64,000 bases of DNA from contig OZ223267.1 of assembly GCA_965140585.1 (NCBI GenBank), positions 384,001-448,000 on the forward strand, read 5' to 3'. A program made the position numbers and the translations under genes. This document shows positions 43,990 through 58,857 of this stretch, piece by piece. The notes under the pieces were generated by a model. That model had not been told where the DNA came from. It did not search any database and worked only from the letters and a program-made list of their open reading frames with translations. This DNA comes from Spirochaetia bacterium. GTDB taxonomy: Bacteria > Spirochaetota > Spirochaetia > UBA9216. The number at the start of each line of letters is the position of its first letter. Positions within the stretch are counted from its first letter, which is position 1.

Positions 43990-44643
43990 TTAATTCAGCC
44001 TGAACGGAATCGGGACATTAACCCAGGATGAAACTGCCTTTCCCTGATACTTTGCCGGAATGAAACTCCAGCTGCCAGAAGCTTCAATAACTGCAGAGTC
44101 GAACACTCCCGGAGGGTCTGATTCCAGAATCTGAGCATCAATAACCTGACCGGTTTCTGACAGATGAACGCTTACCAGAACCCGTCCTTCAAGCTGTCTC
44201 TGCTTTGCCCGTTCGGGGTAGGGAACTTTTATATTCTTTGCAGCCGGAGGAGTATCAACTGCATCCTCGGTCATAACAACATCTTCCAGTTCGCCAAGCA
44301 GAGATTCTGATATCCCTGCAGTTCCGGCTCCGTTAAAATTAGGCAGTGACAGAGAAATACTGCTCATCCCTGAACCTAAAACCGGAACCGGAGCAAGATC
44401 CGTCTCCGTCCTTTTAACCGGTTTCTGCTCCTTCTCTTCACGCGGCGGTGGTGCCTTCTGCTGAGCTAAAGGAATTGTAAAATCGACGGAAGTCATGCTG
44501 TCAATCTTCTCCGGATCTGTAATATACCTGTTCATCAGAATCACCCATGTGAATATAAGAAGTGAACCCAGAAAAGCTATGAGAACTATCCTGATAAAAT
44601 CCTTCCTGCCCGGATTTACCGGATCAAATACTGAACTGCTCAC
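43990..44643 (-). CDS. tonB: Energy transducer TonB
   Basis: N-terminal TM, Pro-rich linker, C-terminal YPERAKQRQLEGRV...FD..VIEA..WSFIPA. Confidence 0.9.
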   Translation of the reverse strand: MSSSVFDPVNPGRKDFIRIVLIAFLGSLLIFTWVILMNRYITDPEKIDSMTSVDFTIPLAQQKAPPPREEKEQKPVKRTETDLAPVPVLGSGMSSISLSLPNFNGAGTAGISESLLGELEDVVMTEDAVDTPPAAKNIKVPYPERAKQRQLEGRVLVSVHLSETGQVIDAQILESDPPGVFDSAVIEASGSWSFIPAKYQGKAVSSWVNVPIPFRLN

Positions 44644-44648
44644 TCTGC

Positions 44649-45044
44649 TCAGTTCCTGGTTGCTACGCCGACATCTGACGCACCTGCCAGTTTTGCCTGA
44701 TCTATTACTTCAATCAGCTGTTCTGTAGAAGTAAGCCGGTCTGCAATAACCAGTACCGAACCTGATGATGATGCAGCCAGTGCATCCCTTACAAGGCTCT
44801 GAAGCATCCAGGTTTTTACAAGCTGTTCGTCCATGTAAATCAGACCTTCTCTGTCAATATAGATACGGATTGATTTGCCAGATGCCGCAGCGGCACCATT
44901 GGCACTGGGCCTTTCAAGGTTAAGCTGCATATCCTTGGTGAAAGTTGTGGATACCGCAAAAAATATTAAAAGTATGAAAACCATATCGATCAGCGGAGAC
45001 ATATCAAGCGCTTCCGGTTCGTGTCTTCTTGGTAAAAATTTCAT
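44649..45044 (-). CDS. exbD: Biopolymer transporter ExbD
   Basis: MSPLIDMVFILLIFF and VIAD motifs. Confidence 0.92.
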   Translation of the reverse strand: MKFLPRRHEPEALDMSPLIDMVFILLIFFAVSTTFTKDMQLNLERPSANGAAAASGKSIRIYIDREGLIYMDEQLVKTWMLQSLVRDALAASSSGSVLVIADRLTSTEQLIEVIDQAKLAGASDVGVATRN

Positions 45045-45664
45045 ACCTGTCCATCTCCTTCATCAGCGTTTAAATCCGCTTCAAAAAATTCTTTAATCTG
45101 TTCAATTTCATCAGCCATGGAATCCTGGCGTCTGTCCAGAAAGCGTCCAAGTATCAGTCCGGGAACCGCAATAACCAGTCCGAACTGTGTTGTAAAAAGC
45201 GCCTGGGAGATTCCATTGGCAATTCCTCCGGTTTGTGAATAGAAAGTCAGACTGCCTAAGGAGTCAAACATTTCTATCATTCCGCTCACTGTTCCGAGAA
45301 GTCCGGCAAGCGGAGCAACAGTTACTATGGTTCTTACAAGAGTTCGATGTCTGTTCATCCCTTCCGTAAGAAAATAGAGCTCGTCATCAAGATAGCTTTT
45401 GATCTTTTTGCTCTGCTTTTTCCGGATACGCCAGGCAATACTGACTGCTGAATCGATAAAGCCTTTAACAGGTTCTTCAGGACGGCATTCGTAGATTGCA
45501 AGCAGTTCACGGACATTCATACGGTTTCCACGTCTCAGCATTATCATACGGTAGGCAAGGGCATACCACAGAACAACTGTACCTGCCACAAGCGGCCACA
45601 TGACAAAGCCGCCGCTTTTTAGGAATGCCGAAAGATCTTCAATCAGGTCAAGGAAGAAATTCAT
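45041..45664 (-). CDS. exbB: MotA/TolQ/ExbB proton channel
   Basis: APLAGLLGTVSGMI and GISQALFTTQFGLVIAVP motifs. Confidence 0.92.
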   Translation of the reverse strand: MNFFLDLIEDLSAFLKSGGFVMWPLVAGTVVLWYALAYRMIMLRRGNRMNVRELLAIYECRPEEPVKGFIDSAVSIAWRIRKKQSKKIKSYLDDELYFLTEGMNRHRTLVRTIVTVAPLAGLLGTVSGMIEMFDSLGSLTFYSQTGGIANGISQALFTTQFGLVIAVPGLILGRFLDRRQDSMADEIEQIKEFFEADLNADEGDGQV

Positions 45665-47031
45665 TTGGCTTTCTTAACCGCCTTTTTGGCTCTCTTGAAT
45701 CCTGAAGATGCATTTACGAGTCTAAGGGCGGAAATCTCCAGCTTTGAACTTATAGAATCAGACCAGGCCGAAAGAAGGTTTCCCAGGAGCAGTGTAGGAA
45801 TTGCCACTACAAGACCAAACTCTGTTGTAACCAGGGCTTCAGATATTCCTCCGGAAAGCAGTTTTGGATCTCCGGTACCATAAATAGTGATTATTTCAAA
45901 AGTTGAAATCATGCCAGTAACAGTTCCAAGAAGTCCGAGAAGAGGCGCCACAGCCGCGAAAACACTGATTGCCGATCTGAACCTGTTCAAAGCTGGCTGT
46001 TCATTAAGTACACTTTCAGCAATTGAATCTTCAACCTTTTTAGGAGAATCGATCAGGCCGTTTACAGTAGCTGTAATTACCCTGTTCAGCGCTCCGCTTA
46101 ATTTACTGCAGAGGACCAGTGCTTCCTGAAGGGCTCCGGATTCTACCTTGTCGGCTATATCATCAATGTACTCTTCTTTATTACCCTTATTGATTCCTGA
46201 AAGGCCTAGAGCCCTGATAACTATCAGCACAAGAGCCAGAAACCCCATGGCAATGATTACAAGTCCGATTATACCGCCTCCGTCTATTGTGTCTTTAAGA
46301 GTTTTCCCCTTGGAGGTTTCAATAAGATTTTCTGATGATTCAAATAGAAAAAGCGGAAGACTTGCAGGATGTTTTCCGTTAATAATTTCCTTCGCCTGGG
46401 GCAAGAAATCCTCTCTGACAAGGTGAAACATTCCGCCTCCGGCCGGGGCTAACGTGCCACCGATATTGTCGCCTGTTCCCATTGCCGCTATCTGGCCTAC
46501 ATGAGCAATTTTTCCATCGACGGTTTTTCCGTCGGGAAGGAAAAATGGTTCCTCTTTTACTGTAATTGAACCCAGTGTAGAGAGGAGCTTCAATGACTCT
46601 GAAAAAACTTCACCCAGATTGGCTGTCTGTTCATCAGCATTACCGCTGTATGCTTTAGTTTCAACATCATATTTCTGAAGTTTTGATACCGCCTGTATGA
46701 TGATTGTTTCAATCGTATCGAAAGTCTCAGTTGAATCACTTTCCTGGTCTTCAAGGAAGTTCAGTTCTTTCTGTTCTTTTTCTACATCATCCTGTAGGTT
46801 AAGCAGGGTAACTTCAAGGCGGTTAAGTTCATCTCTGGCTGCTTCAATACGCTGGTCTCCGTCAGTCTCAACATCCTGAATCCTATGCTGAAGAAGACGT
46901 ATTTCATTATCAAGATAGATAAACTCCCGTTTATATGCATCAGTGAGACTATCGCTTTCCTGTGCGGAAACGGAGAATATGCTGCAAAGAATCAATACTG
47001 CTGATATGATTAATACAAGCTGCTTTTTCAT
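45661..47031 (-). CDS. Large ExbB-family protein with periplasmic coiled-coil domain (TtpC-like)
   Basis: Signal peptide, coiled coil, then APLLGLLGTVTGMI..GTGDPKLLSGGISEAL. Confidence 0.85.
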   Translation of the reverse strand: MKKQLVLIISAVLILCSIFSVSAQESDSLTDAYKREFIYLDNEIRLLQHRIQDVETDGDQRIEAARDELNRLEVTLLNLQDDVEKEQKELNFLEDQESDSTETFDTIETIIIQAVSKLQKYDVETKAYSGNADEQTANLGEVFSESLKLLSTLGSITVKEEPFFLPDGKTVDGKIAHVGQIAAMGTGDNIGGTLAPAGGGMFHLVREDFLPQAKEIINGKHPASLPLFLFESSENLIETSKGKTLKDTIDGGGIIGLVIIAMGFLALVLIVIRALGLSGINKGNKEEYIDDIADKVESGALQEALVLCSKLSGALNRVITATVNGLIDSPKKVEDSIAESVLNEQPALNRFRSAISVFAAVAPLLGLLGTVTGMISTFEIITIYGTGDPKLLSGGISEALVTTEFGLVVAIPTLLLGNLLSAWSDSISSKLEISALRLVNASSGFKRAKKAVKKAK

Positions 47032-47035
47032 GCGA

Positions 47036-47818
47036 TTACTCCTGTTCAGCCGTCATGGGGTTCGGCAGCTCAAAGAAACCTTCCCTCAGATTTTTCCGTA
47101 TTGAGTCAAACAGGGTTTCTATCTGCTTCTGCTGAGTCCGATCTTTAAGGACGGTATATTCGGGCCCGGTCTCTGTTCTTAAAGCGTAACCGTATTTCTC
47201 ATCAAAGGTTTTGAAATAAAGCAGGACCATCCCAAGTCTGGCAACTTCAACCAGCTGCTGTTCACCGTCAATCACTGCCTGCTGCCTGTAGATACCGTTT
47301 TCTGTTGTCAGCCGGAATTCAGACTCCAGGAGGTTCCAGAATCTGGCCAGAACCACACCGGTATCAGCGCTGCCTGTTTCGATTAAAGTTTTTAAGTCCT
47401 GTGCCTCGGAAACTCTTTCATCGGTCTGAAATGGAATGCCGCTTTTTATATATGCAATCAGCTCTTCAATGGTATTCAGCAGAACAGGTTTAATCTCGAC
47501 GATTGACTCCCTGTTCTTTTTTATCTGGTCCTCAAATTCGGCTGTATCTCTTCTGATTTGTTCTAAACTTATTTCTTCACGTTTGATCTGGGTTTCGATA
47601 TCAGTTTTCTGGGTTGCTATAGAACGGAGCTGCTCATTGTATTCAGTTTTTGTCAGTGAGAGCTGATTCGATAAAGTTTCAACCTGAGAACGTTTTTCGG
47701 CTATCTGGGCGGCAAGATTATTAAGTGCTGATGATTCAGCATCCTGTGCAAAAATTATAAGGGGTATAAAAAAAAGAAAAAGGGTTAAATAAACCTTTTT
47801 ATTAAGTGCTTTATGCAT
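47036..47818 (-). CDS. DUF3450-like (TtpB-like) periplasmic coiled-coil protein
   Basis: Signal peptide, coiled coil, IPFQTDER and RLGMVLLYF motifs; located upstream of the TtpC-like gene. Confidence 0.75.
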   Translation of the reverse strand: MHKALNKKVYLTLFLFFIPLIIFAQDAESSALNNLAAQIAEKRSQVETLSNQLSLTKTEYNEQLRSIATQKTDIETQIKREEISLEQIRRDTAEFEDQIKKNRESIVEIKPVLLNTIEELIAYIKSGIPFQTDERVSEAQDLKTLIETGSADTGVVLARFWNLLESEFRLTTENGIYRQQAVIDGEQQLVEVARLGMVLLYFKTFDEKYGYALRTETGPEYTVLKDRTQQKQIETLFDSIRKNLREGFFELPNPMTAEQE

Positions 47819-47828
47819 TAGTTTTCCT

Positions 47829-47856
47829 CAAAAAACTCCACGCCCGAAGACGTGGA
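47829..47856 (-). terminator. Intra-operon terminator/attenuator hairpin
   Basis: Minus strand TCCACGTC-TTCG-GGCGTGGA followed by GTTTTTT. Confidence 0.7.
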
Positions 47857-47877
47857 ATTAAAGCAGTAATAATAATC

Positions 47878-49287
47878 TTAGTTGGCAGGTGTTGAAGTCC
47901 AGCCGGCATACCATTCAGATCCTGAAGTTGAAGGATCAACAGCTCCAAAGTAGGCTGAGCCATCTACGCTTACAGAAATTGATGTTAAATCAGTTAAAGT
48001 TGTACTTGTCGGGCAAACATCAACTTCACTTTCATTAGCTCCAGCGAATGCTGCAGCGGGAAGGTAAGTTGTAATATTTCCATTGGTTGCATCTTTATTT
48101 GCTGCTGCAGTTGCAACCCAGTCGGCAGCTTCAGTAGCACTGTCCACAGCAGTTACAACGCCCTTATAAACAACAGTTCCGCATTCTTCGCCGGTAGCTG
48201 TCTCTTCTTCAAAGGGTTCTTTTGCAACAGCATATGCTATTGAGTTTATAAGAGTAAGGTTGGTCCCTCTTCTGAACTTACATCCGTGATCTCCGTTTCC
48301 AATCATTGTAAAGTTTGAAAGAGTAGGATTGGCAACAGGAGTGGCTGCAGTATTATCTTCGTTACTGTCAGCTTCAATGAGTTTGTCACCGATACCTGAA
48401 TACTGCTGAAGAATCACATGGTCGGCTGCTCCCGTCCATCCGTATGTCCAGTCAAGTGAATCGTCTTTTGCACCTGTAATTACAAGGTGGCTTACTTCTA
48501 CAGCTCCGCCGAAGAACTCAACACCGTCATCAGCATTCATGTGAACCTGAACGTAGTCTACAGTTGTTCCGCTTCCTACGGCCTGGAAGGCTATTCCGTT
48601 AAGTTCGTTGTCTGCACTGAAAAGTGTGCCGGCAAATTCAACTCTTACATATTTAAGAGTTCCGCTGTTATCAGCATCATCTGTTCCGCCGTAAGTTCCG
48701 GTTTCACCTTCACCTTCTGCAGTACCTCCGGTAGCATTGATTGCAGCGTTACCGTTGATTACAAGTCCGCCCCAGTCTCCGCGTGCTCTCGTTCCTTCTG
48801 ATTTTGCAGATGTAAAAACAATAGGAGCTGCAGCAGTACCGACTGCATTTATTTTTGAACCCCTTGTTATAACAAGGACACCCGGTTTGGTTGTGCTGAC
48901 TTCACCCTTGATAAGGGTTCCGGCTTCAATTGTAAGTGTACAGTTATTAGCATTATCATTTCCAATGAATACAGCATCAGCAAGATAGTATACATTGTCA
49001 CTATCCCAGCTCATGTCAGTTCCGAATCTTCCTGCTACAAGTACCTGATACTCATCATCATCACCTGTCATGTAGCCTGCATCACCTGAGACATCACCAT
49101 CAGCATCGTAAGTTCTTGTTGCCATATATCCGCCAAGGTCATCTACAGCGCTTACAATAAAGCCGTTTCCAAGATCGTCTCCAATCGCATAGTCTACAGT
49201 TCCGGTTGAATCGTCACAACCAACAAAGACAGCGAGTACAAGTGCCAGCATCACGAGTACTGACAATATGTTCATTAGTTTCTTCAT
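47878..49287 (-). CDS. Acidic beta-helix-type lipoprotein of a kind commonly associated with TonB receptors
   Basis: Lipobox FVGC; LTIEAGT, GSKINAVGT..PIVFTS, GDWGGLVINGNA, DNSGTLKYVRVEFAG and DDGVEFFGG motifs; AGGAGG RBS. Confidence 0.8.
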   Translation of the reverse strand: MKKLMNILSVLVMLALVLAVFVGCDDSTGTVDYAIGDDLGNGFIVSAVDDLGGYMATRTYDADGDVSGDAGYMTGDDDEYQVLVAGRFGTDMSWDSDNVYYLADAVFIGNDNANNCTLTIEAGTLIKGEVSTTKPGVLVITRGSKINAVGTAAAPIVFTSAKSEGTRARGDWGGLVINGNAAINATGGTAEGEGETGTYGGTDDADNSGTLKYVRVEFAGTLFSADNELNGIAFQAVGSGTTVDYVQVHMNADDGVEFFGGAVEVSHLVITGAKDDSLDWTYGWTGAADHVILQQYSGIGDKLIEADSNEDNTAATPVANPTLSNFTMIGNGDHGCKFRRGTNLTLINSIAYAVAKEPFEEETATGEECGTVVYKGVVTAVDSATEAADWVATAAANKDATNGNITTYLPAAAFAGANESEVDVCPTSTTLTDLTSISVSVDGSAYFGAVDPSTSGSEWYAGWTSTPAN

Positions 49288-49323
49288 ACTTTTCCTCCTA
49301 TGGAAAATTTAATAGATGGGCAC

Positions 49324-49409
49324 ATATTACGGGGCGGACTGTTAGGGTAGTATTATCCTGATATGAAATAGGGATAAGTTTAGTGTTAATTGTATTTAGA
49401 GAATGTTAA
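49324..49409 (-). promoter_or_regulatory. Pho-box-like direct-repeat array with -10 element
   Basis: Minus-strand units TTAACA, CTTATC, TTCATA, ATAATA and CTAACA at exact 11-bp spacing (49389 to 49340), a further TTAACA at 49409, and TAATAT at 49329-49324, 10 bp downstream of the last unit. Confidence 0.6.
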
Positions 49410-49424
49410 ATAACACAGTGGAAT

Positions 49425-49462
49425 AAAAAAAAGGAACCAACCTGTTTCAAGTCAGTCCCCTT
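49425..49462 (-). terminator. Terminator after the RRM gene
   Basis: Minus strand AAGGGGACTGACTT-GAAAC-AGGTTGGTTCCTT (several G-U pairs) running into T8. Confidence 0.6.
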
Positions 49463-49485
49463 CGGTACAAAGTAAAAAGTTATTG

Positions 49486-49755
49486 TTAGAAGCGTCTAGG
49501 GCCTCGTTCCTTTTCAATTGATTCGTTCACTTTAATGTTGCGGCCTTCAATATCAGTACCATTGAGCGCAGAGATTGCAGCCTGTGCTGAATCCTCGTCC
49601 TCCATCTCTACGAAACCGAAGCCCTTGGAGCGATTGGTTTCTCTGTCCATGATAATTTTTGCACTAACAACAGGTCCGAACTGACCGAACAGCTCTTCAA
49701 GCCCTTCGTTGCGCATTCTGTAGTTTAAGTTCCCTACATAAATTTTCTTTGACAA
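49486..49755 (-). CDS. RRM RNA-binding protein
   Basis: RNP2 IYVGNL and RNP1 KGFGFVEM; TTG start. Confidence 0.93.
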   Translation of the reverse strand: MSKKIYVGNLNYRMRNEGLEELFGQFGPVVSAKIIMDRETNRSKGFGFVEMEDEDSAQAAISALNGTDIEGRNIKVNESIEKERGPRRF

Positions 49756-49892: not shown

Positions 49893-51260
49893 TTATTTTT
49901 CATCGGGATTATCAAAGACAACCACCGTTCCGTTAAAATCAAGTACATCTCCGCTTTTAAGTATATGCTGCTTTTTAAACCGGTTGTTGACCTTAAACTC
50001 ATCATCAGCTGCTACAGTGTAGTTTCCAACGGTCTTGTCGTATACTATGGTCGCGTGTGATTCTCTTAAAGACGGGTTCCCGGCTACAGTCATATCGGCC
50101 CGGTCCCCAGCTCCAATTACAGTTACCTCATTTGTCAGATTCACTCTTGTTACCTGTGAAAATGGTTTGTCTGTATTGAGAATATTGATTTCCGCCGATT
50201 TTGCGGCATGTTCCCATACAAGCAGAAGCATTGCGGCAATTATACCTGCAGCAAGCAGAAGCGGAATCAGAAACAGCCAGCTGAAACCGTTCTCTGGAAG
50301 TCCCAGAAAGTGAGGTACATAGAATGCCGACTGACTTTCCTGATTGTCCACCTTCAGGATTATATCGTTAACCTCTGTCCTGTTGTATGAAGGACGGAAG
50401 CGTATACGGTATTCTTTTCTTATTTCCTCACGTATTGTACTGTAGACATTTTCAAGCTGTTCTCTGTCTGTTGCATCAAAGCTCCTGCCGCCTGTGGCTT
50501 CAGCAATTCTGGAAAGTTGCGGATCTCTGTCTGCTCCTATATGAACCGCATAAATACTGATGCCTTCCTCAAGCATTTTTTCAATAACTTCATCAGGTGC
50601 GGTTTGCTCTCCTGCATACAAAGGATGCTCACTACCAGAAAGCGAGTAGGGATAGTTTTCTCCGTCTGAAAGAACAATCATTGCCCGCCGGCCGGTAAAA
50701 GCTGCAAGTTCAGCAGAGGCCTTGTCCATGGACAGGTAGAGCTCTGTGAATGCTTCATCATCCGCCGGTTTCTGAATCTTTTGAAGTGAGGATTTCTGTG
50801 TTCCTGATATTCCGGCAATCGGTGAAAGCGGTGTGTAGTATGTGTTAAAAGAGGCAATCCCTATCTTATCAAGCGGATTATCTATACTGCTTAGAAAAGA
50901 TTCTACAGCATGAACCGCAGTCTGATATCTGCTCTCATCGCCTATATTCCATTTATGCATTGACCCCGAATTATCCAGCAGCAGAAGAAAGCTGATACCC
51001 TGCTGTTCAGGGGCTTCCTGCTCAATGCTCTGAATCTTCTGTTCCTTCATATTCCCCTTTGAATCGAGAATAAAAAGCTGAATTTTCTCTGAGCCGTCCA
51101 GAGTTCTCGGTGATCCTTCAGCATCTCTTGGAAGAAAGAACAGATCAAGAGTTCCGTCAATCAAAAGCCTTCGGTTTTCTATCTGGGTAATATCAATACT
51201 CTGAGCAAACAAAGATGAAACTGTTAATAAACAAATCGCTGCAGCTAATAATTTCTTCAT
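49893..51260 (-). CDS. Exported VWA domain - TM - cytoplasmic degenerate FHA domain protein
   Basis: Signal peptide MKKLLAA, MIDAS motif LLLDNSGS..T..LSDGEN, TM WLFLIPLLLAAGIIAAMLLLVW, FHA-like VIGAG..ADM....SHA..VNN..LKSGDVL. Confidence 0.8.
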   Translation of the reverse strand: MKKLLAAAICLLTVSSLFAQSIDITQIENRRLLIDGTLDLFFLPRDAEGSPRTLDGSEKIQLFILDSKGNMKEQKIQSIEQEAPEQQGISFLLLLDNSGSMHKWNIGDESRYQTAVHAVESFLSSIDNPLDKIGIASFNTYYTPLSPIAGISGTQKSSLQKIQKPADDEAFTELYLSMDKASAELAAFTGRRAMIVLSDGENYPYSLSGSEHPLYAGEQTAPDEVIEKMLEEGISIYAVHIGADRDPQLSRIAEATGGRSFDATDREQLENVYSTIREEIRKEYRIRFRPSYNRTEVNDIILKVDNQESQSAFYVPHFLGLPENGFSWLFLIPLLLAAGIIAAMLLLVWEHAAKSAEINILNTDKPFSQVTRVNLTNEVTVIGAGDRADMTVAGNPSLRESHATIVYDKTVGNYTVAADDEFKVNNRFKKQHILKSGDVLDFNGTVVVFDNPDEK

Positions 51261-51274
51261 AATATTCTCCATAA

Positions 51275-52163
51275 CTAAGGTATAAATCTTAGTACTGTCC
51301 GTCCGCACCGGATAACATCTTCATATTTAAGCTGGCAGTCTCCATCGACAGCCCTGTCGTTGATAAACAGCTTTTTATCCGAAGCCTTCTTTTCAATATG
51401 AAGACTGCCTGACTGCCGGTATACCCTGGCATGGAAACCTGCTACTGCGGAATCTCCAGGCAGGACAATATCAGCCTTGTCGGCAGAACCTATAAGGCTT
51501 GAAGTTCTTGAGATGATGAATTCCTTACCTTTAAATTTTCCATTAACGACTTTCAGCACACCGTACCGGCCCACAGCATCAGCTATACTGAGCCCGGCGC
51601 CGATGAAAATTCCCATGAAAATAAAGCCGGCAAGTCTTAGTCCGGAAGGAGCTACTATGCTTAATGAGTTAAGTCCCTCATAAGCAAGTCCCGCCGGCAA
51701 GCCCTCCAACCAGTCCTCCGGCAAGTCCGAACAGCAGTCTTCTAAGTGATTTTGTCCTAACTCCTTCAATTATTCCAAGAATGCCGCCGAGGACAGTCCA
51801 TCCCGGAATTCTTGCTTTCGGAAGATAACTGGTCTGTATATCATTAATTGAAGCGCTTCCGGCTCCTGTGACAGAAAATAAAAGCCCCTGGGCTATCAGG
51901 ATTGCTAAGGCTCCGGCGATAAAGCCGAATATCAGACCGAAGAGTGCTCCATTTGCAGCCTTTGATTTTATTGAAAGGGCAATTCCTTCACCCAGTCCTA
52001 TTACAGCTCCGTATACAGCACCGATAAAACCTCCGGTAATGATCAGGTGCAGGTAAAATGAACCTCCGTTCATGATCATAAGAGATTCAGTGGCGAACCA
52101 CACTATGCCTCCTGCGGCCAGTCCAAGCAGCAGATATATAATCTTTTTTATAGTTTTAGTCAT
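51275..52163 (-). pseudogene. Gly-rich multi-TM protein with C-terminal FHA-like domain, split by a one-base frameshift
   Basis: Removing one G from the minus-strand GGG at 51690-51692 gives ...GGLAGGLAYEGLNS... and joins both ORFs. FHA-like GKFKGKEF..LIGS..ADIVL..FHARV..INDR..LKYEDVI. Confidence 0.75.
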
Positions 52164-52187
52164 TACGTTAACTCCCTGCTGTGATGT

Positions 52188-54092
52188 TTACTTTCTCAGC
52201 AATTGAATATTTCCATCTATCTCAGTAATTCTCAGTTCAATCTTCTCGCCAGAGACGATACTTAAATCCAGTCTTGTTCTGGATCCCCATCTTGATGCTT
52301 CAAACCTGTAGCGTCCCGGAGCCAGGTTCATAATCCCGGGAATGCTGTCATGCAGATTCCATGCTTCCATCCTTGTCACAGGACTTCCGCTGCTGTTATC
52401 TTCCAGATATAAATCAATCCATGATGTCCCGTTCACCGTCAAATCAATATTCTCATTACCTGTATCAAGACTAATAAGAGCCGGTTCCGGCAGGAGTACC
52501 GCTTCAATCTTCAAATCCCTGATTTCTTCTCCCAGAAAAAGGGAATAATCCTGTCCTATATATCCGTCAGCCGTCAGTCTGAAAAGATGAACATCTCCCG
52601 ATTCGATATTTGTTATATCTGAAAATGGAATGAACCCCCGGTTGGTTTTCATGCTTATCTGCGTATCAGGACCGATATCTTTCCCGCTCACTGCATCTCT
52701 GATGTCGAGAGCTACTGACAGTTCTGATGGCGCCGGCTCAGGAATACTGAAGGTTTTTACAGTTTCAGGATAAATATCCGATCCGCTGTGAAGCCTTTTC
52801 TGTTCTCTACCGGCCGGGAGATATACCGAGCCCCAGAAGATATCGGGACCGCAGGTAATTTTAATTCGGTATATCCCTGTTTTCAGATACAGGGGCAGCG
52901 TTGAGAATGTAGAACCTGTGTTTTCAGAATTTATAAACTTAGGAATCTTAAAAATTGACGGTTTTACCACAAGCGGAATTTCAGCGTTTTTTTCCGAAAA
53001 AACAGCGGCTGAAACCGGCAGATTATGAAAGTAACCTGCATTTTCGGGTAATGAAAAAGTTATCCTTAGTCTGCCGTCTGTACTTCCTTTAAAAAGGGGA
53101 TGAAATACCGTACTCTTAATTCCTGCAGTGAACAGAATAGCAACTGCCGCCATAGCAATGACGGATCGAGTGACTATTCTTATCAGGTTTTTCCTGGGTT
53201 TTAGAAGCTGCTCATTTTCTTCCAGACGTACCATAGAGCCTAGTTTTTCGCGAATAGCTTCTTTCTCGTAGTATTTGAGCAGCTTTTCGGTTCTTTTAAT
53301 TATCTGCTCTACCGTTTGATACCTTCCTTTCGGAGAGGTCTTCATACAGCCTCTGATAATTCTTACAAGCTGCCTCGATATTTCGGGAACATATTTTCTC
53401 GGGTTCCGGTATATTCCTTTCTGCTTTGCATGTATCAGTTCCGGAGAGAAACCGCCGGTAAAGGGCTGTTTTCCTGTGAGCATCTCGTATGCCATTACCC
53501 CCAGAGCATAAATATCAGCCCTTGCGTCTACATTCCTTGAATTTTGAAATTGTTCGGGAGCCATATAGGACGGTGTGCCCAGTGTCATCCCTTCACGGGT
53601 CAGTCCTGAATCTACATCTTCGGTCGATGCCGCAATTCCAAAGTCTGCGAGCTTGATTGCACCGTCTCTTGAAAGCAGCAGATTGGCGGGTTTTATATCC
53701 CTGTGTACTACGCCGCGCTTATGCGCATAACCAAGTGCCCTGGCACAGTGCAGCAGGATATATGCCGCCGTAACTGAATCAAGGTATCTGTGTTCTTTGA
53801 TAAGTCCTTCAAGAGAAGTTCCCTCAACATATTCCATGACAATGAAGTAAGAACTGCCCTCCTTGAAATGATCGAATACCGTGACAATATCATCATGTCT
53901 AAAATCCATCAGAATTCTGGCTTCGCGCTTAAAGCGTTCGGAGAAGGCCGATTTTCCACGAAGGGTAAGTTTTTTAAGGATTACGGGTCTGTTAAGAGTA
54001 GGGTGCATGGCTTTGTAAACCGCGCCCATACCGCCCTTGGCAATAAGGTCAACCTCGCCGTATTTATCAATCTTCTCAGGCTCTTTTCCCAT
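52188..54092 (-). CDS. Hanks-type Ser/Thr protein kinase, single TM, extracytoplasmic beta-rich (PEGA-like) region
   Basis: GGMGAVYKA, HRDIKPAN, DFG, GTPSYMAPE and DIYALG motifs; TM SVIAMAAVAILFTAGI. Confidence 0.93.
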   Translation of the reverse strand: MGKEPEKIDKYGEVDLIAKGGMGAVYKAMHPTLNRPVILKKLTLRGKSAFSERFKREARILMDFRHDDIVTVFDHFKEGSSYFIVMEYVEGTSLEGLIKEHRYLDSVTAAYILLHCARALGYAHKRGVVHRDIKPANLLLSRDGAIKLADFGIAASTEDVDSGLTREGMTLGTPSYMAPEQFQNSRNVDARADIYALGVMAYEMLTGKQPFTGGFSPELIHAKQKGIYRNPRKYVPEISRQLVRIIRGCMKTSPKGRYQTVEQIIKRTEKLLKYYEKEAIREKLGSMVRLEENEQLLKPRKNLIRIVTRSVIAMAAVAILFTAGIKSTVFHPLFKGSTDGRLRITFSLPENAGYFHNLPVSAAVFSEKNAEIPLVVKPSIFKIPKFINSENTGSTFSTLPLYLKTGIYRIKITCGPDIFWGSVYLPAGREQKRLHSGSDIYPETVKTFSIPEPAPSELSVALDIRDAVSGKDIGPDTQISMKTNRGFIPFSDITNIESGDVHLFRLTADGYIGQDYSLFLGEEIRDLKIEAVLLPEPALISLDTGNENIDLTVNGTSWIDLYLEDNSSGSPVTRMEAWNLHDSIPGIMNLAPGRYRFEASRWGSRTRLDLSIVSGEKIELRITEIDGNIQLLRK

Positions 54093-54112
54093 AAATAGTT
54101 CTGTTCCTTATA

Positions 54113-55117
54113 TTAAATTCTGCTGATTCGGATAATCTGCTTGTGGGGAATAAAGTCTTCGCCCCTGAATACAACAGCCGCTATTTCCTCTGATGGATGA
54201 TTAATCTGTATATACCTGTCTGAAGCCCGAAGCGCATACAGACCGTTTACCGGCCTGTGTCCGCCGAAGCATAATGCTGTCGGATTTTCCGGAAAAAGAT
54301 TATCAAGTGTCTGTTCAACACTCCCTTCCTCTGCAGCTTCATTATCAGTCCAGGTCAGGCCGTAAAGAACCTCATCATCTTCGTAAGCATTTATCAATTC
54401 GTCGCGGCTGAAAGTGCGTACAGGTTCCGCATGTGTAACCAGAAACCTCTCACCGACAGCCGTAAGCGGTAGTGCTTTTTCATAGTCATAAATCAGATCG
54501 AAGCATTCTTTTCCAAGAAACTTCTCTGTCCATACTTTTACCATTTCACCTTCATTAACAAACTTTCTAAAAGGGTAGTTCCCTTCGCCCATCTCATTGG
54601 CGATATTCTCATGGTTTCCTTTAAGGAAAAAAAAGTTTTCCGGAAAACTCTGAAGCAGTACCAGAATCATCTGCAGCAGCCTCAGATTGTCGGACATCTC
54701 CTGATCCATGGACCCATGTTTAACAAAACCTTCCATAAATTCTACATAAGCCAGGGACCATCTGCCTCTGACTCTTGCTTCACCATGAAAGGCGTCTCCT
54801 ACACAGACTACATTAGCTGTGCCCTGGGCGAGCATCCGAAGAAACGAATCCCCTTTTACAAGCGGTATTGTAAGTGCATTGTACAGGAAATCACGTCTTC
54901 CATGAAGATCCGGAATAATTAATGTGGGCATCTCCGGTTTAAGAGAGATAAGGCTTCCCGGCTCTCCGGATGAGGCGGTGGGGCGAATTTCATCAGATAG
55001 TCCCTTGAGACTGTCTATTGTTTTTCTGAGTTCTGTGGCAAGTGCCGCACCCTTGGGGGTGGAGGCACTGTCACGTAATCGAGCTAATAATGAACTGACA
55101 ACTTTAAAGGTATTCAT
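54113..55117 (-). CDS. Calcineurin-like (PPP-type) metallophosphoesterase
   Basis: DLHG, GDAFH, KGNHE, THA and GGH motifs. Confidence 0.85.
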   Translation of the reverse strand: MNTFKVVSSLLARLRDSASTPKGAALATELRKTIDSLKGLSDEIRPTASSGEPGSLISLKPEMPTLIIPDLHGRRDFLYNALTIPLVKGDSFLRMLAQGTANVVCVGDAFHGEARVRGRWSLAYVEFMEGFVKHGSMDQEMSDNLRLLQMILVLLQSFPENFFFLKGNHENIANEMGEGNYPFRKFVNEGEMVKVWTEKFLGKECFDLIYDYEKALPLTAVGERFLVTHAEPVRTFSRDELINAYEDDEVLYGLTWTDNEAAEEGSVEQTLDNLFPENPTALCFGGHRPVNGLYALRASDRYIQINHPSEEIAAVVFRGEDFIPHKQIIRISRI

Positions 55118-55127
55118 CAGTTAAGAA

Positions 55128-55664
55128 TTATTCTCCGGCAATAATTGTTCTATTTACTTCAGTAAAATCTTCGGCAAGTATCTGTGTAACTTCAGCCAGC
55201 TGTTCTTCTTCATCTTCGGCTTCTAGCTCATCAGAGAATACTGCCATCTTATATATCGGCGAACTGCTCTTAACAGGACCGGATTTAAATTTTACTGATT
55301 CACCGGCCTGTACCATTGCATCAAGAACTGCATCTTCCGATTCTGCAAACTCTGGAACATCTTCCCTCATTCCGATGCTTGCATATGTTGCTGTTCTTTT
55401 GCCGTCTACAATTGGCCCTACAGAAAGAAGTGAACCTGAATAGGTAAGCAGAAGAACGCCGCCGTTTTCATCGTAGGGATCGAATTCGTCGACCATTTCC
55501 ATTTTTCTTACCAGGATCTGATGAACAAAGGCATCTTCTTTTTCTTTCCATGCTCTTGCCAGTGTTTCAAGAGCTTCACCGTCATCTTCAATTTTTACCG
55601 ATTTCCTAAGACTGCTGATATGATCAGCAACTTTCGGATCCAATTCATCAAAATATTCTGCCAT
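55128..55664 (-). CDS. Acidic hypothetical protein; standalone paralog of the N-terminal domain of 55793-56656
   Basis: GGAGG RBS; shares LTxSGSLxS, YxSIxxRxDVP and GxVxx[ST]SP[IV]xx[MI]AV with the divergent gene. Confidence 0.85.
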   Translation of the reverse strand: MAEYFDELDPKVADHISSLRKSVKIEDDGEALETLARAWKEKEDAFVHQILVRKMEMVDEFDPYDENGGVLLLTYSGSLLSVGPIVDGKRTATYASIGMREDVPEFAESEDAVLDAMVQAGESVKFKSGPVKSSSPIYKMAVFSDELEAEDEEEQLAEVTQILAEDFTEVNRTIIAGE

Positions 55665-55700
55665 TTTGCATCCTCCATCCTCGTTAATTTATACCGGTTT

Positions 55701-55749
55701 TCCAGAAAATTCCAAAAAAATCGGAAAAATTTGAAAAATGTTGTATAAT
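55701..55749. promoter_or_regulatory. Divergent promoter region with four 10-bp-phased A-tract repeats and a TATAAT
   Basis: TCCAGAAAAT TCCAAAAAAA TCGGAAAAAT TTGAAAAATG, then TATAAT at 55744-55749. Confidence 0.5.
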
Positions 55750-55792
55750 TAAGCTGTACAAAGCCTAATACATATGGAAAACAGGAGGCAGT

Positions 55793-56656
55793 ATGGCTTT
55801 TAATAAATTACCTGCGGATATACAGAAACACATCACCGGACTCGTAAAACTTATTCCGGATGCCGGGGAGGATACGCTGGAGTTGTACTCTGACGTATGG
55901 ATGGAAAAGGACAGGATGTTCAGGAGCCAGATGTCCTCAGTCGGCATGAAGCTGGTTGAGACTGCAGATCCCGGAGAGGGAAACGGAATCCTTGCCCTGA
56001 CCAATTCCGGTTCACTTGTAAGTCTGAGCCCCGGAAAAGAAGAGCGGGTTCTTGAATATTCAAGTATTAAACTGCGAACAGATGTCCCGGATATAATTAT
56101 AGATAAAATATCGAAGCTCCCGGAATCTATCAAAAACGGAATGCCTGTGGTTTTTCCTGAGGGCCGGGTAAGCAGAACCAGCCCGGTGCATCTGATAGCA
56201 GTCTGTACTTCAGAGGTTCCGCAGGAAGAGCAGTACAAGCGAGTCAGGGAAGCCACAATCTTTTTAACCAACGGATTTATGAAACTTAACCGCAGCCTTC
56301 ATCTTGATCCTGCAAATGTTCCGGATCAGTACACTATGAAAAGCATGGTCAGGTATGTAGCTAAAAAGAACAGTATGACCGCCGGAGATGTGAAGACTGT
56401 AATTGATGACTTTCTGTATCTCATCGAAACAGGCTTAACACTTGGTGAAACTGTACCGCTGGGAAGAATAGGACGGTTCAGTGCTAAGAAAAAGGATGCT
56501 CAGAAGGCAAGAATCGTAAGACATCCGGCTACCGGTGAAGAGATTACAGTAGAAGCCAAACCATCAATTGTAGTGCCCAAAATATCTTTCTCCAGCTATC
56601 TTAAGGAACAGCTTGCCGAGCTGCCGGCATCAGAGAATGATACGATAGAACGCTGA
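55793..56656 (+). CDS. Fusion of an unknown N-terminal domain with a C-terminal HU/IHF DNA-binding domain
   Basis: C-terminal GETVPLGRIGRF..K..QKARIVRHPATGEEITVEAKP..VPKISFSSYLKE matches the HU/IHF signature; AGGAGG RBS. Confidence 0.85.
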   Translation: MAFNKLPADIQKHITGLVKLIPDAGEDTLELYSDVWMEKDRMFRSQMSSVGMKLVETADPGEGNGILALTNSGSLVSLSPGKEERVLEYSSIKLRTDVPDIIIDKISKLPESIKNGMPVVFPEGRVSRTSPVHLIAVCTSEVPQEEQYKRVREATIFLTNGFMKLNRSLHLDPANVPDQYTMKSMVRYVAKKNSMTAGDVKTVIDDFLYLIETGLTLGETVPLGRIGRFSAKKKDAQKARIVRHPATGEEITVEAKPSIVVPKISFSSYLKEQLAELPASENDTIER

Positions 56657-56688
56657 CTTTTTTTTAAGAACAGTTTATTCTACAGTAT

Positions 56689-58857
56689 ATGAGCAGTCCA
56701 TTTCTTTCAGCATCAGAGAAAAACCGTGGTCTTAAGCACCATTACCGTCACCAGCTGTTAAACGGCATCGGATTTAACTTTCTGGGTGATACGCCTGTAT
56801 ACCTCCTGGCTTTATATTTCGGGGCAAGCAATACAGAGCTTGGATTTATAAGTTCGGTTCTATATGTTGCAGGTATTCTTCTTTCAATTACCCCAAGGCT
56901 GCTTGCCGGTAAAGATATTGTAAAAATTCAGTATCTTGCATGGCTTATTCGCGGATTTCTCTGTCTTTCCTACGCCGCCCTGTTTTTCTTACAGGGACGA
57001 GCGGCTGTATGGCTGATTCTGATAACATATACGCTTTTCTGCTCATCGCGAATCGTGGGAGCATCTATGTATCAGCCGCTGATCAGGATGATTTCCACAA
57101 CCCGCAACCGGGGCAATGTTCTTGCCGGATCTTCGCTTAGATTTCAGATTTCGGCCACTCTTTCAAAGGTAATAAGTTTTGCAGTTACATCACTAAAGCA
57201 GCTGGGCGGAGTGTCCGGAATCCTTTTTATGACTCTTGGCGGTGTGATCATTAATACATTAGCCGCGCTTGAGATAAAAAAAATTCCCTGTAGGGAGAAA
57301 GTCAGATATAAAAAAGGAAGAAATGTATTTGTTATCTTTCTTGAATCTGTGAAAGTAAAAAATCTGCGGCAGCGAATACTTCTTTCAATAATCAACGCAG
57401 GGCTGATAGTAATTTTCGGGTTTGCTGTTCCGTTTCTGCGTAATGATGCCGGGTTTTCAAACTCCGAAGTCTTTCTAGTGACAGTGACCGCCGGGGTTGC
57501 TACCATTGCTTCTGCATATTTTTCAAAGGGTTTTGCGGATCGCCTGGGCAGCCGTCCGCTTATAATCTGGGTAATTGTACTTCTTACAGCCGCGTCACTT
57601 CTCTGGGCTTTACTTCCGTATACTCCCTACAAGGCTGTCTATTATTTCGCTCTTTTTCTTTCAACGTTTTTTCTCAGAGCCAATGACCTTCTGGTAAACA
57701 GGCTTATTGTAGGAAGTATGCCGGAAAATGATTCGGTTGGTTTTTCAAGTATGCTGAATTTTTTTATAGCTTTCTTTGCCCTGATAATCGGTCTCACTGG
57801 CGGAAAGCTGGCGGATTTTTCCAAAAGCAGTGACTCTTTTGCGGCTGTAAATGGGTATTCCTTCACCTTTATTTTTGCGGCAGTACTCTGCCTGTTTTCT
57901 CTGTTTATTTCGCTCAGGATAAAAGAAAGCGGTTCTATTTCGCCAGCTGAAGCAGCTGCCATAATTTTTTCACCGTCAAACCTTTCGACATATCAGAGTA
58001 TTTCCAAACTCGATTCAACCGAAAACGCAATTCAGCGGAAGACACTTCTGATGAATATTGGTCTGAATAATTCCAAAATGGCAACGGATGAAATCCGAAA
58101 CATTTTATCCAGCCCTCTCTCTTCCGATAAAGGTGAACTTATTACTTCACTGTATACGAACCATAGGCCTATTCTTCTTCCTGAACTTCTGCATGAAGCT
58201 GAGGAACCTTATTCATATCACCGGTTGAAGGCTATATTTGCTCTGGGTGCATATCCCTCTGTTGAAACCCAGGAGCTGCTTTTAAGGCTGCTTGACGATC
58301 CGGATCCGGCTGTTGTTTCAAATGCAGCAAAATCTCTAGGCAGAATAGGCTGTACAACCGCTTATGATAAGGTAAAAAAACTTGCAGCATCTCCGACTAC
58401 GATCTGGAACACGCTCAATTTTATTATTGCCATGTATCATCTTGATACTGAGGGTGAATATCTGAATGATATCTTCTCGGAAGACAAAACAGTCAACGGG
58501 GATGCTTTTAACCAGACTGTGTACAGTCTTTATGCAAACCTGTATCAGATGGAGCCGCCGCTCTCAGTTATTTTCCAGGAGAGAAATATGATGAAGGGGC
58601 AGGGGCTTCGGGATTTCCTGGATGAGGCACGTGAAGAGGAGAAATTCCTTCATAATCATCGAAATTTTCTTGAGTGGTTCAGGGATGATGAACTCGAAAA
58701 TATCTGGAACCTCTGTAAAGATATTCTTCAGCCGAAGACTGTCCCTGACTATTATTCGGGCATAAAAAAAAGCATCATCAAATTCCCTTCCGACAAAGGA
58801 GCTTATGATGATGCTTTAGCAGCAGTATATTTTACATATCAGCTGCTTAAGATGTAG
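56689..58857 (+). CDS. MFS transporter with C-terminal HEAT repeats
   Basis: About 12 TM segments, ADRLGSRP MFS loop motif, HEAT-like RLKAIFALG...LLRLLDDPDPAVVSNAAKSLGRIG. Confidence 0.82.
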   Translation: MSSPFLSASEKNRGLKHHYRHQLLNGIGFNFLGDTPVYLLALYFGASNTELGFISSVLYVAGILLSITPRLLAGKDIVKIQYLAWLIRGFLCLSYAALFFLQGRAAVWLILITYTLFCSSRIVGASMYQPLIRMISTTRNRGNVLAGSSLRFQISATLSKVISFAVTSLKQLGGVSGILFMTLGGVIINTLAALEIKKIPCREKVRYKKGRNVFVIFLESVKVKNLRQRILLSIINAGLIVIFGFAVPFLRNDAGFSNSEVFLVTVTAGVATIASAYFSKGFADRLGSRPLIIWVIVLLTAASLLWALLPYTPYKAVYYFALFLSTFFLRANDLLVNRLIVGSMPENDSVGFSSMLNFFIAFFALIIGLTGGKLADFSKSSDSFAAVNGYSFTFIFAAVLCLFSLFISLRIKESGSISPAEAAAIIFSPSNLSTYQSISKLDSTENAIQRKTLLMNIGLNNSKMATDEIRNILSSPLSSDKGELITSLYTNHRPILLPELLHEAEEPYSYHRLKAIFALGAYPSVETQELLLRLLDDPDPAVVSNAAKSLGRIGCTTAYDKVKKLAASPTTIWNTLNFIIAMYHLDTEGEYLNDIFSEDKTVNGDAFNQTVYSLYANLYQMEPPLSVIFQERNMMKGQGLRDFLDEAREEEKFLHNHRNFLEWFRDDELENIWNLCKDILQPKTVPDYYSGIKKSIIKFPSDKGAYDDALAAVYFTYQLLKM

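Follow-up and report, generated by a model that had tools for sequence, protein, structure and literature searches.

To our knowledge, few bacterial domains that read phosphorylated Ser or Thr residues are known, and the FHA domain is the main one. In the TerY-P triad, a soluble von Willebrand factor A (VWA) protein is combined with a PP2C phosphatase and a Ser/Thr kinase in a stress or restriction context, and the actinobacterial PknB/PstP/FhaA/FhaB and GarA/OdhI switches include a membrane kinase with an ectodomain, a transmembrane (TM) FHA partner and small FHA proteins. The archaellum network of Sulfolobus acidocaldarius, in the available parts of PMC7472852 and PMC6509490, comprises ArnA (FHA), ArnB (VWA), the kinase ArnC and the phosphatase PP2A, and the available text on the DRA0331–DRA0334 operon of Deinococcus radiodurans (bioRxiv 10.64898/2026.01.23.701218) gives a VWA protein, a Ser/Thr kinase, an FHA protein and an FHA-PP2C protein. 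Here, we analyze a divergent locus in a 64,000-nucleotide stretch (the window) of contig OZ223267.1 from a Spirochaetia bacterium. It encodes a Hanks-type kinase, a PPP-family phosphatase, two membrane proteins with FHA domains and two copies of a domain of about 178 amino acids (aa), one standalone and one fused to HU/IHF. We read the locus as a conserved Spirochaetota Ser/Thr phosphorylation system in which an envelope receptor complex would signal to DNA-binding outputs with the shared domain as relay, and we place the probability of this reading at about 55%.

The cluster belongs to the known kinase/phosphatase/FHA/VWA type but differs by the domain and the HU fusion, which have no counterpart there. 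Like TerY-P, it keeps VWA, kinase and phosphatase genes together, but it has a PPP enzyme, a membrane receptor layout, a single copy and a stable gene order, and the domain has no match in plasmid or phage collections. With the PknB-type switches it shares a membrane kinase, a TM-FHA protein (a weak NCBIfam match to FhaB) and small FHA proteins bearing an N-terminal acidic-Thr motif; however, no PASTA domains were found, the phosphatase is PPP rather than PP2C, the FHA is degenerate, and a VWA receptor and a novel domain are present. The likeness to the Arn network, a comparison of generic domains only, lies in a kinase, a PPP-family phosphatase, FHA and VWA forming one phospho-switch on gene expression. 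ArnA keeps an intact phosphothreonine (pThr) site and binds ArnB in the parts of those papers available, whereas the spirochaete operon FHAs are both degenerate, its VWA is predicted to be extracytoplasmic and membrane-anchored, with the domain and the HU fusion as further components. A preliminary description of the locus had singled out the phosphatase as unusual; the enzyme does match PF00149 and not PP2C, but the Sulfolobus PP2A is a precedent within an FHA/VWA/kinase network (PMC7472852, available part). The DRA0331–DRA0334 operon resembles our cluster in holding VWA, kinase, FHA and phosphatase genes in push-pull within a single bacterial operon, but has a PP2C and a canonical FHA, and its available text names no multi-TM partner, novel domain or HU fusion. 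The locus is thus a member of none of the systems compared, because its FHAs are degenerate, its VWA protein appears to be a membrane receptor, its phosphatase is not PP2C, and its domain and HU fusion lack a counterpart. PADLOC left seven of the eight cluster proteins unmatched, and only generic kinase models matched. In keeping with the earlier suggestion that the combination is undescribed, no published description of the cluster was found in the literature searched, most subscription papers lying outside that coverage.

On the minus strand, the standalone domain protein (178 aa, net charge −24; 55128–55664) heads an operon that continues with a PP1-like PPP-family metallophosphatase with an altered second motif (334 aa, PF00149; 54113–55117), a single-pass membrane Hanks-type Ser/Thr kinase whose C-terminal part is predicted to be extracytoplasmic (634 aa, PF00069; 52188–54092), a multi-TM protein whose C-terminal FHA domain is degenerate (51275–52163), and a putative envelope receptor composed of a signal peptide, VWA, TM segment and degenerate FHA (454 aa from its ATG; 49893–51257). 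The successive intergenic gaps are 10, 20, 24 and 17 bp, in agreement with the range of 10–24 bp given previously. On the plus strand lies the proposed DNA-level output (55793–56656), in which the domain (aa 1–176) is fused to HU/IHF (about aa 181–274). The two units are separated by an AT-rich region of 128 bp (55665–55792), presumably a shared promoter region, in which a promoter scan found no sigma-70 consensus. The open reading frames (ORFs), their order and their strands were as described in the preliminary account, and Pfam confirmed the domains (Pkinase, Metallophos, VWA, FHA, Bac_DNA_binding and, in the gene downstream of the HU fusion, MFS_1 with HEAT).

The case for a single system comes from co-inheritance, for which all markers were counted in the same set of 301 sampled Spirochaetia genomes; as these genomes are kin, the counts do not represent independent events or amount to a statistical test. 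The domain is present in 103 genomes, the phosphatase family in 111 (101 shared with the domain), TM-FHA in 94 (93 shared) and fusion-type HU in 95 (92 shared); all four markers occur in 87 of the 117 genomes that carry any one. From the domain matches we selected 102 loci, the duplicates L001, L002 and L004 having been dropped before counting. The standalone copy occurs in 95 of the 102, and all five operon genes in 68 of these 95, L077 being included through a second copy near its operon. The HU fusion accompanies the operon in 45 of the 68 full loci, and a small FHA gene is present in 19. The order domain-phosphatase-kinase-TM/FHA-VWA is nearly fixed and reaches other classes of the phylum, whereas the HU fusion may be divergent upstream, convergent downstream, tandem or unlinked. 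A phylum tally of 104/401 contains HU-only matches and is not used as a domain count. The minority of homologues with an organism name all come from spirochaetes, the genome-level searches having been confined to Spirochaetota. Two named species that we take to be cultured, Marispirochaeta aestuarii and Salinispira pacifica, have the HU fusion in their annotation, and a distribution limited to uncultured organisms was rejected on the basis of these named carriers. These comparisons indicate that the cluster is real, old and conserved across Spirochaetota. The proposed co-occurrence was borne out, with domain, kinase, phosphatase, both TM proteins and HU fusion inherited together, and the cluster genes very probably work as one system.

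The domain itself lacks recognizable relatives. Pfam, NCBIfam, PHROG and PADLOC returned no match for the standalone protein, and Pfam found nothing in aa 1–176 of the HU fusion. The two copies are paralogues (35% identity over 173 aa, E = 1e-26), as expected from the idea of one domain in a standalone and an HU-fused form. An AlphaFold2 (AF2) model of the domain (mean predicted local distance difference test score, pLDDT, 94) has two N-terminal helices, a beta core and a long C-terminal helix. Foldseek searches of the Protein Data Bank (PDB) with the whole domain and with the beta core gave nothing at E ≤ 0.001, and neither a wide VIA-align search of the PDB nor a fold search of viral models gave a clear match. 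The best structural match of the beta core was 2vld, the N-terminal part of NucS (Z 5.7, root-mean-square deviation 3.5, 82 aligned residues), followed by DM10-type chains (Z 4.0–4.7), with PH-like leads among the weaker matches. The domain profile had a single match among PDB sequences, at E = 0.38, and in the ESM Atlas the domain and the TM part fall only in unnamed clusters scoring under 0.9. The earlier view that the domain is in no well-characterized family agrees with these searches, in which neither a family nor a fold was matched.

Despite this isolation, the domain carries a strict polar motif. Residues W39, K42, F46, T74, S76, G77, S78, R90, Y94, S96, R100 and S135 are found in 68/68 operon-locus and 9/9 LuxR-type copies, are nearly invariant in two sets of 50 and 120 HU-fused copies, and reach 92–99% among the 101–109 representatives covering each position; length filters had taken fused or truncated ORFs out of the alignments. 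Conserved Lys, Arg, Tyr and several hydroxyl residues on an otherwise acidic domain suggest a phosphate-binding site, and the pattern appears to suit a phosphate-binding reader no less than it suits a substrate. We think it probable that the domain is the phospho-dependent relay of the system; if it is, the balance tips gently toward a reader, with a role as substrate only a little short of even. A substrate-only domain, the model of the preliminary account, could act through phosphorylation at Thr/Ser134–Ser135, or at other conserved Ser/Thr residues, that docks canonical FHA readers and switches the HU fusion directly. Position 134 is indeed Thr (0.48) or Ser (0.52) in all of 95 sequences, and the residue at +3 is mostly Ile or Val, as in an FHA ligand; canonical FHA genes also recur near the domain, both in the 19 full loci mentioned above and as FHA-LuxR pairings. 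However, most operon-locus copies have Ser134 (47/68), yet FHA domains select pThr (PMC6509490, available part). Moreover, several of the conserved Ser/Thr residues fall in strands of the AF2 model, and a mere phosphosite would not need invariant K42, R90, Y94 and R100. We consider this substrate-only explanation rather unlikely.

The phosphatase retains its metal ligands (DxH, GD, GNH, H and H) in 71/71 sequences, and its family profile matches only PP1/BSU1/PP5/PP2A-type chains (49/49, best E = 3e-5). Its second motif is GDxxHxE (H in 71/71, E in 70/71, with an Arg two places later in 61/71) instead of the canonical PPP motif GDxxDRG, so it constitutes a divergent PP1-like branch. By profile and ligands it is a PPP-family protein phosphatase, with putative activity on phosphoproteins. 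The altered motif also leaves room for an enzyme of another kind, a metallophosphoesterase acting on the same small phosphorylated molecule, a nucleotide or metabolite, that the domain binds or turns over, in which case the HU fusion would be ligand-gated and only loosely tied to the kinase. The invariant residues of the domain are as strict as those of an active site, and domain and phosphatase remain adjacent at three loci from which the kinase has moved away (L057, L058 and L123). The profile, however, matches protein Ser/Thr phosphatases exclusively, the phosphatase keeps its order with the kinase after loss of the domain, and the loci contain no conserved nucleotide-synthesizing gene. A small-molecule ligand of this kind seems improbable to us.

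The kinase (PF00069, E = 9e-53) is intact in all 68 sequences at the catalytic Lys, alpha-C Glu, HRD, DFG and activation-loop Thr165, and it is the sole PF00069 gene detected in this 98%-complete genome. Hydropathy predicts one TM segment. A periplasmic PEGA-like domain had been proposed for the locus; PEGA (PF08308) has no match in the window's kinase, but matches 2/34 homologue ectodomains, with CarboxypepD_reg matching 4/34, and the ectodomain may be described as weakly PEGA-like. The VWA protein has an N-terminal signal or hydrophobic segment and one TM segment by hydropathy, with the VWA domain between them, and its metal-ion-dependent adhesion site (MIDAS) retains D, S, S and D in 66/66 sequences and T in 65/66. 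The multi-TM protein has about five predicted TM segments and an FHA domain, as originally described, but its gene is split in the window by an extra base near 51689. In three loci (L043, L047 and L051), the TM-FHA and VWA genes appear as a single ORF of 756–824 aa (start sites as read), which supports a shared complex.

Both operon FHA domains have largely lost the residues assigned to pThr binding in the available part of PMC6509490 (Arg of GR, Ser of SxxH and Asn of NG). Arg, Ser and Asn are found in 3/66, 8/66 and 2/66 TM-FHA sequences and in 2/66, 3/66 and 2/66 VWA-FHA sequences, whereas all three are kept in 22/22 small FHA and 11/11 FHA-LuxR controls. The most specific form of our proposal is that the domain is a phospho-Ser/Thr reader with its own fold that replaces reading by the operon FHAs, and that the HU fusion would be switched directly by the envelope-sensing kinase complex. 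We regard this version as tentative, and doubtful in its full detail.

The HU portion of the fusion matches the HU/IHF profile (PF00216, E = 2e-14) and keeps the DNA-binding arm (Arg240 in 48/50, Pro245 in 45/50 and Thr247 in 46/50), and is predicted to bind DNA. The Pfam HU-HIG match in the fusion spans aa 178–235 only. The HU-CCDC81/HU-HIG fusion clades (PMC5499826, available part) are similar in placing HU inside a larger protein; the main text of that survey, as available, never mentions a kinase, FHA, VWA or phosphatase. In Deinococcus, phosphorylation of HU on Thr alters DNA binding (PMC9900698, available part). In a quick tree, the HU-fused copies from two or more classes fall into a single clade (52 rows; support of 100 in the Shimodaira–Hasegawa-like approximate likelihood ratio test, SH-aLRT), and the duplication is therefore old. 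A recent local duplication was rejected on the same grounds. The genome also encodes a canonical HU of 103 aa elsewhere. A three-part complex prediction with the phosphatase, HU-fusion aa 1–176 and the standalone domain scored 0.00 in two runs, which speaks neither for nor against the proposal.

The domain also occurs in other settings. In nine loci, copies of a separate clade (SH-aLRT 100, quick tree) are divergent from an FHA-LuxR regulator gene, making the regulator a candidate second DNA-level output. Two further loci of this kind were found; the two-gene modules, each a third copy of the domain divergent from an FHA-LuxR factor, are at L046, L048, L050, L052, L055, L056, L059, L060, L062, L120 and L124, and the FHA-LuxR factors bear an acidic-x-Thr-Leu linker motif. 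In protein P0207, found on 5 contigs from 4 sources, a signal peptide-VWA-TM region is joined to the domain at the usual FHA position and followed by a helical C-terminus. Fusion of the domain to a helical C-terminal region of ~120 aa with no Pfam match is seen in P0207, L078, L091 and L141–L143; no longer fusions turned up when they were searched for, though this is weak evidence. Where genomes have the phosphatase but not the domain, phosphatase-kinase is directly preceded in seven loci (L105–L111) by a canonical small FHA gene, which occupies the usual slot of the domain; L112 is similar. L105–L112 are reduced operons of small FHA, phosphatase and kinase that lack the domain, TM-FHA and VWA. 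The N-terminal D/E-Thr-Ile/Val motif of many small FHAs in our reading resembles that of GarA/OdhI.

Persistence of FHA-phosphatase-kinase loci without the domain is one of the points that favor a different division of labor, in which the acidic standalone copy would be an inhibitor or partner of the HU fusion through domain pairing and the kinase would signal mainly via canonical FHAs to targets other than DNA, for example metabolism or cyclic di-GMP. Standalone copies have a median net charge of −18 compared with −5 for HU-fused copies, and the standalone/HU-fusion pair is usually divergent. Moreover, the genome encodes two canonical FHA proteins, one of 127 aa (G000:C1:158043-158426, L137) and one of 326 aa (G000:C4:243087-244067, L138) with what we take to be a GGDEF-like motif; both are likely further readers of the genome's single kinase. 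Against such a scheme, the standalone copy opens the kinase operon and not the unit of the HU gene, and P0207 puts the domain at the receptor. The standalone copy is also retained in five genomes (G088, G131, G182, G209 and G221; 92–96% complete) in which TM-FHA and fusion-type HU both went undetected with these queries. Of the explanations considered, we give this one the smallest chance.

Several observations count against the domain being the relay between kinase and DNA. The small FHA and the FHA-GGDEF-like protein just described could carry the output instead. The FHA components foreseen in the preliminary description are present by Pfam, but those of the operon lack the pThr-binding residues. 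Kinase and phosphatase can do without the domain, since 10 of the 111 phosphatase genomes lack it, and fusion-type HU is undetected in 11 of the 103 domain genomes. Copies of the domain also lie outside the cluster (11 orphans and 9 loci with a neighboring FHA-LuxR gene), at loci with only the phosphatase (L057, L058 and L123), or fused to the helical domain of no known family; P0207 lacks Y94, S96 and R100. The earlier expectation that homologues would not occur without the kinase cluster therefore holds only in part, yet a Hanks kinase is encoded elsewhere in 10/10 checked genomes with an unlinked domain, and the retrieved ones belong to the same kinase family.

We infer the biochemical steps of the relay scheme from the linkage of the genes and the conservation of their residues. 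An inner-membrane complex would comprise the kinase, the VWA protein and the Gly-rich multi-TM protein, and both FHA domains, having lost pThr binding, may serve in it as scaffolds. The kinase would be turned on when an extracytoplasmic ligand engages the MIDAS or the ectodomain of the kinase. The domain would relay the signal to the cytoplasm, most likely through a pocket that binds phosphate and so recognizes a phosphorylated partner; the domain might also be phosphorylated at the conserved Thr/Ser134–Ser135. The HU-fused copy would convert the state of the domain into changed DNA binding or bending, with the acidic standalone copy as adaptor or competitor; in some genomes the FHA-LuxR regulator and a third copy may provide a second output. 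The phosphatase would reset the system. The domain is a testable candidate for another phospho-Ser/Thr reader, being small, soluble and confidently modelled, carrying a strict polar motif but matching no fold in the searches, and being tied to the one Hanks kinase found in the genome. If the scheme is true, the regulatory domain that the HU protein carries would link envelope sensing to the state of the nucleoid by a short route, in a system found in about a third of the sampled Spirochaetia genomes.

The plus-strand gene that follows the HU fusion (56689–58857) encodes a 722-aa MFS-HEAT protein and is a genuine gene, single-copy in the genome. It had been counted as part of the system, but adjoins the cluster in only 2/102 loci, the window locus and the same-genus locus L003, and is better regarded as a local neighbor; we rejected it as a cluster member, as we did the downstream RRM gene, for which the count is likewise 2/102. 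Downstream of the operon, positions 43990–49755 hold the RRM gene, a lipoprotein-like gene of 469 aa, DUF3450 and genes that read from their sequence as ExbB/ExbD/TonB-like; the block beyond the RRM gene differs between the window locus and L003.

Comparison with L003 also clarifies the split TM-FHA gene. There it is an intact 295-aa gene, while in the window the extra base divides it into 51678–52163 and 51275–51769, the sole coding indel across a 14.6-kb alignment of 91% identity. The split form is recorded on one contig only, OZ223267.1, and the frameshift is likely an assembly error.

A tandem DUF3276 gene, which we assume to be PUR-like, follows the operon at L027, L029, L053, L054, L057, L058, L061, L063 and L123, in family f35 only. 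L085–L090 and L092–L094 make up a long-branch orphan clade in which Asn replaces S76 (9/9); several members are divergent from a lipoprotein-like gene and from one that reads to us like dihydropteroate synthase. In the tree, both domain copies of the source genome group with families f3/f9 and not with other f1 genera, possibly through transfer or as a taxonomic quirk.

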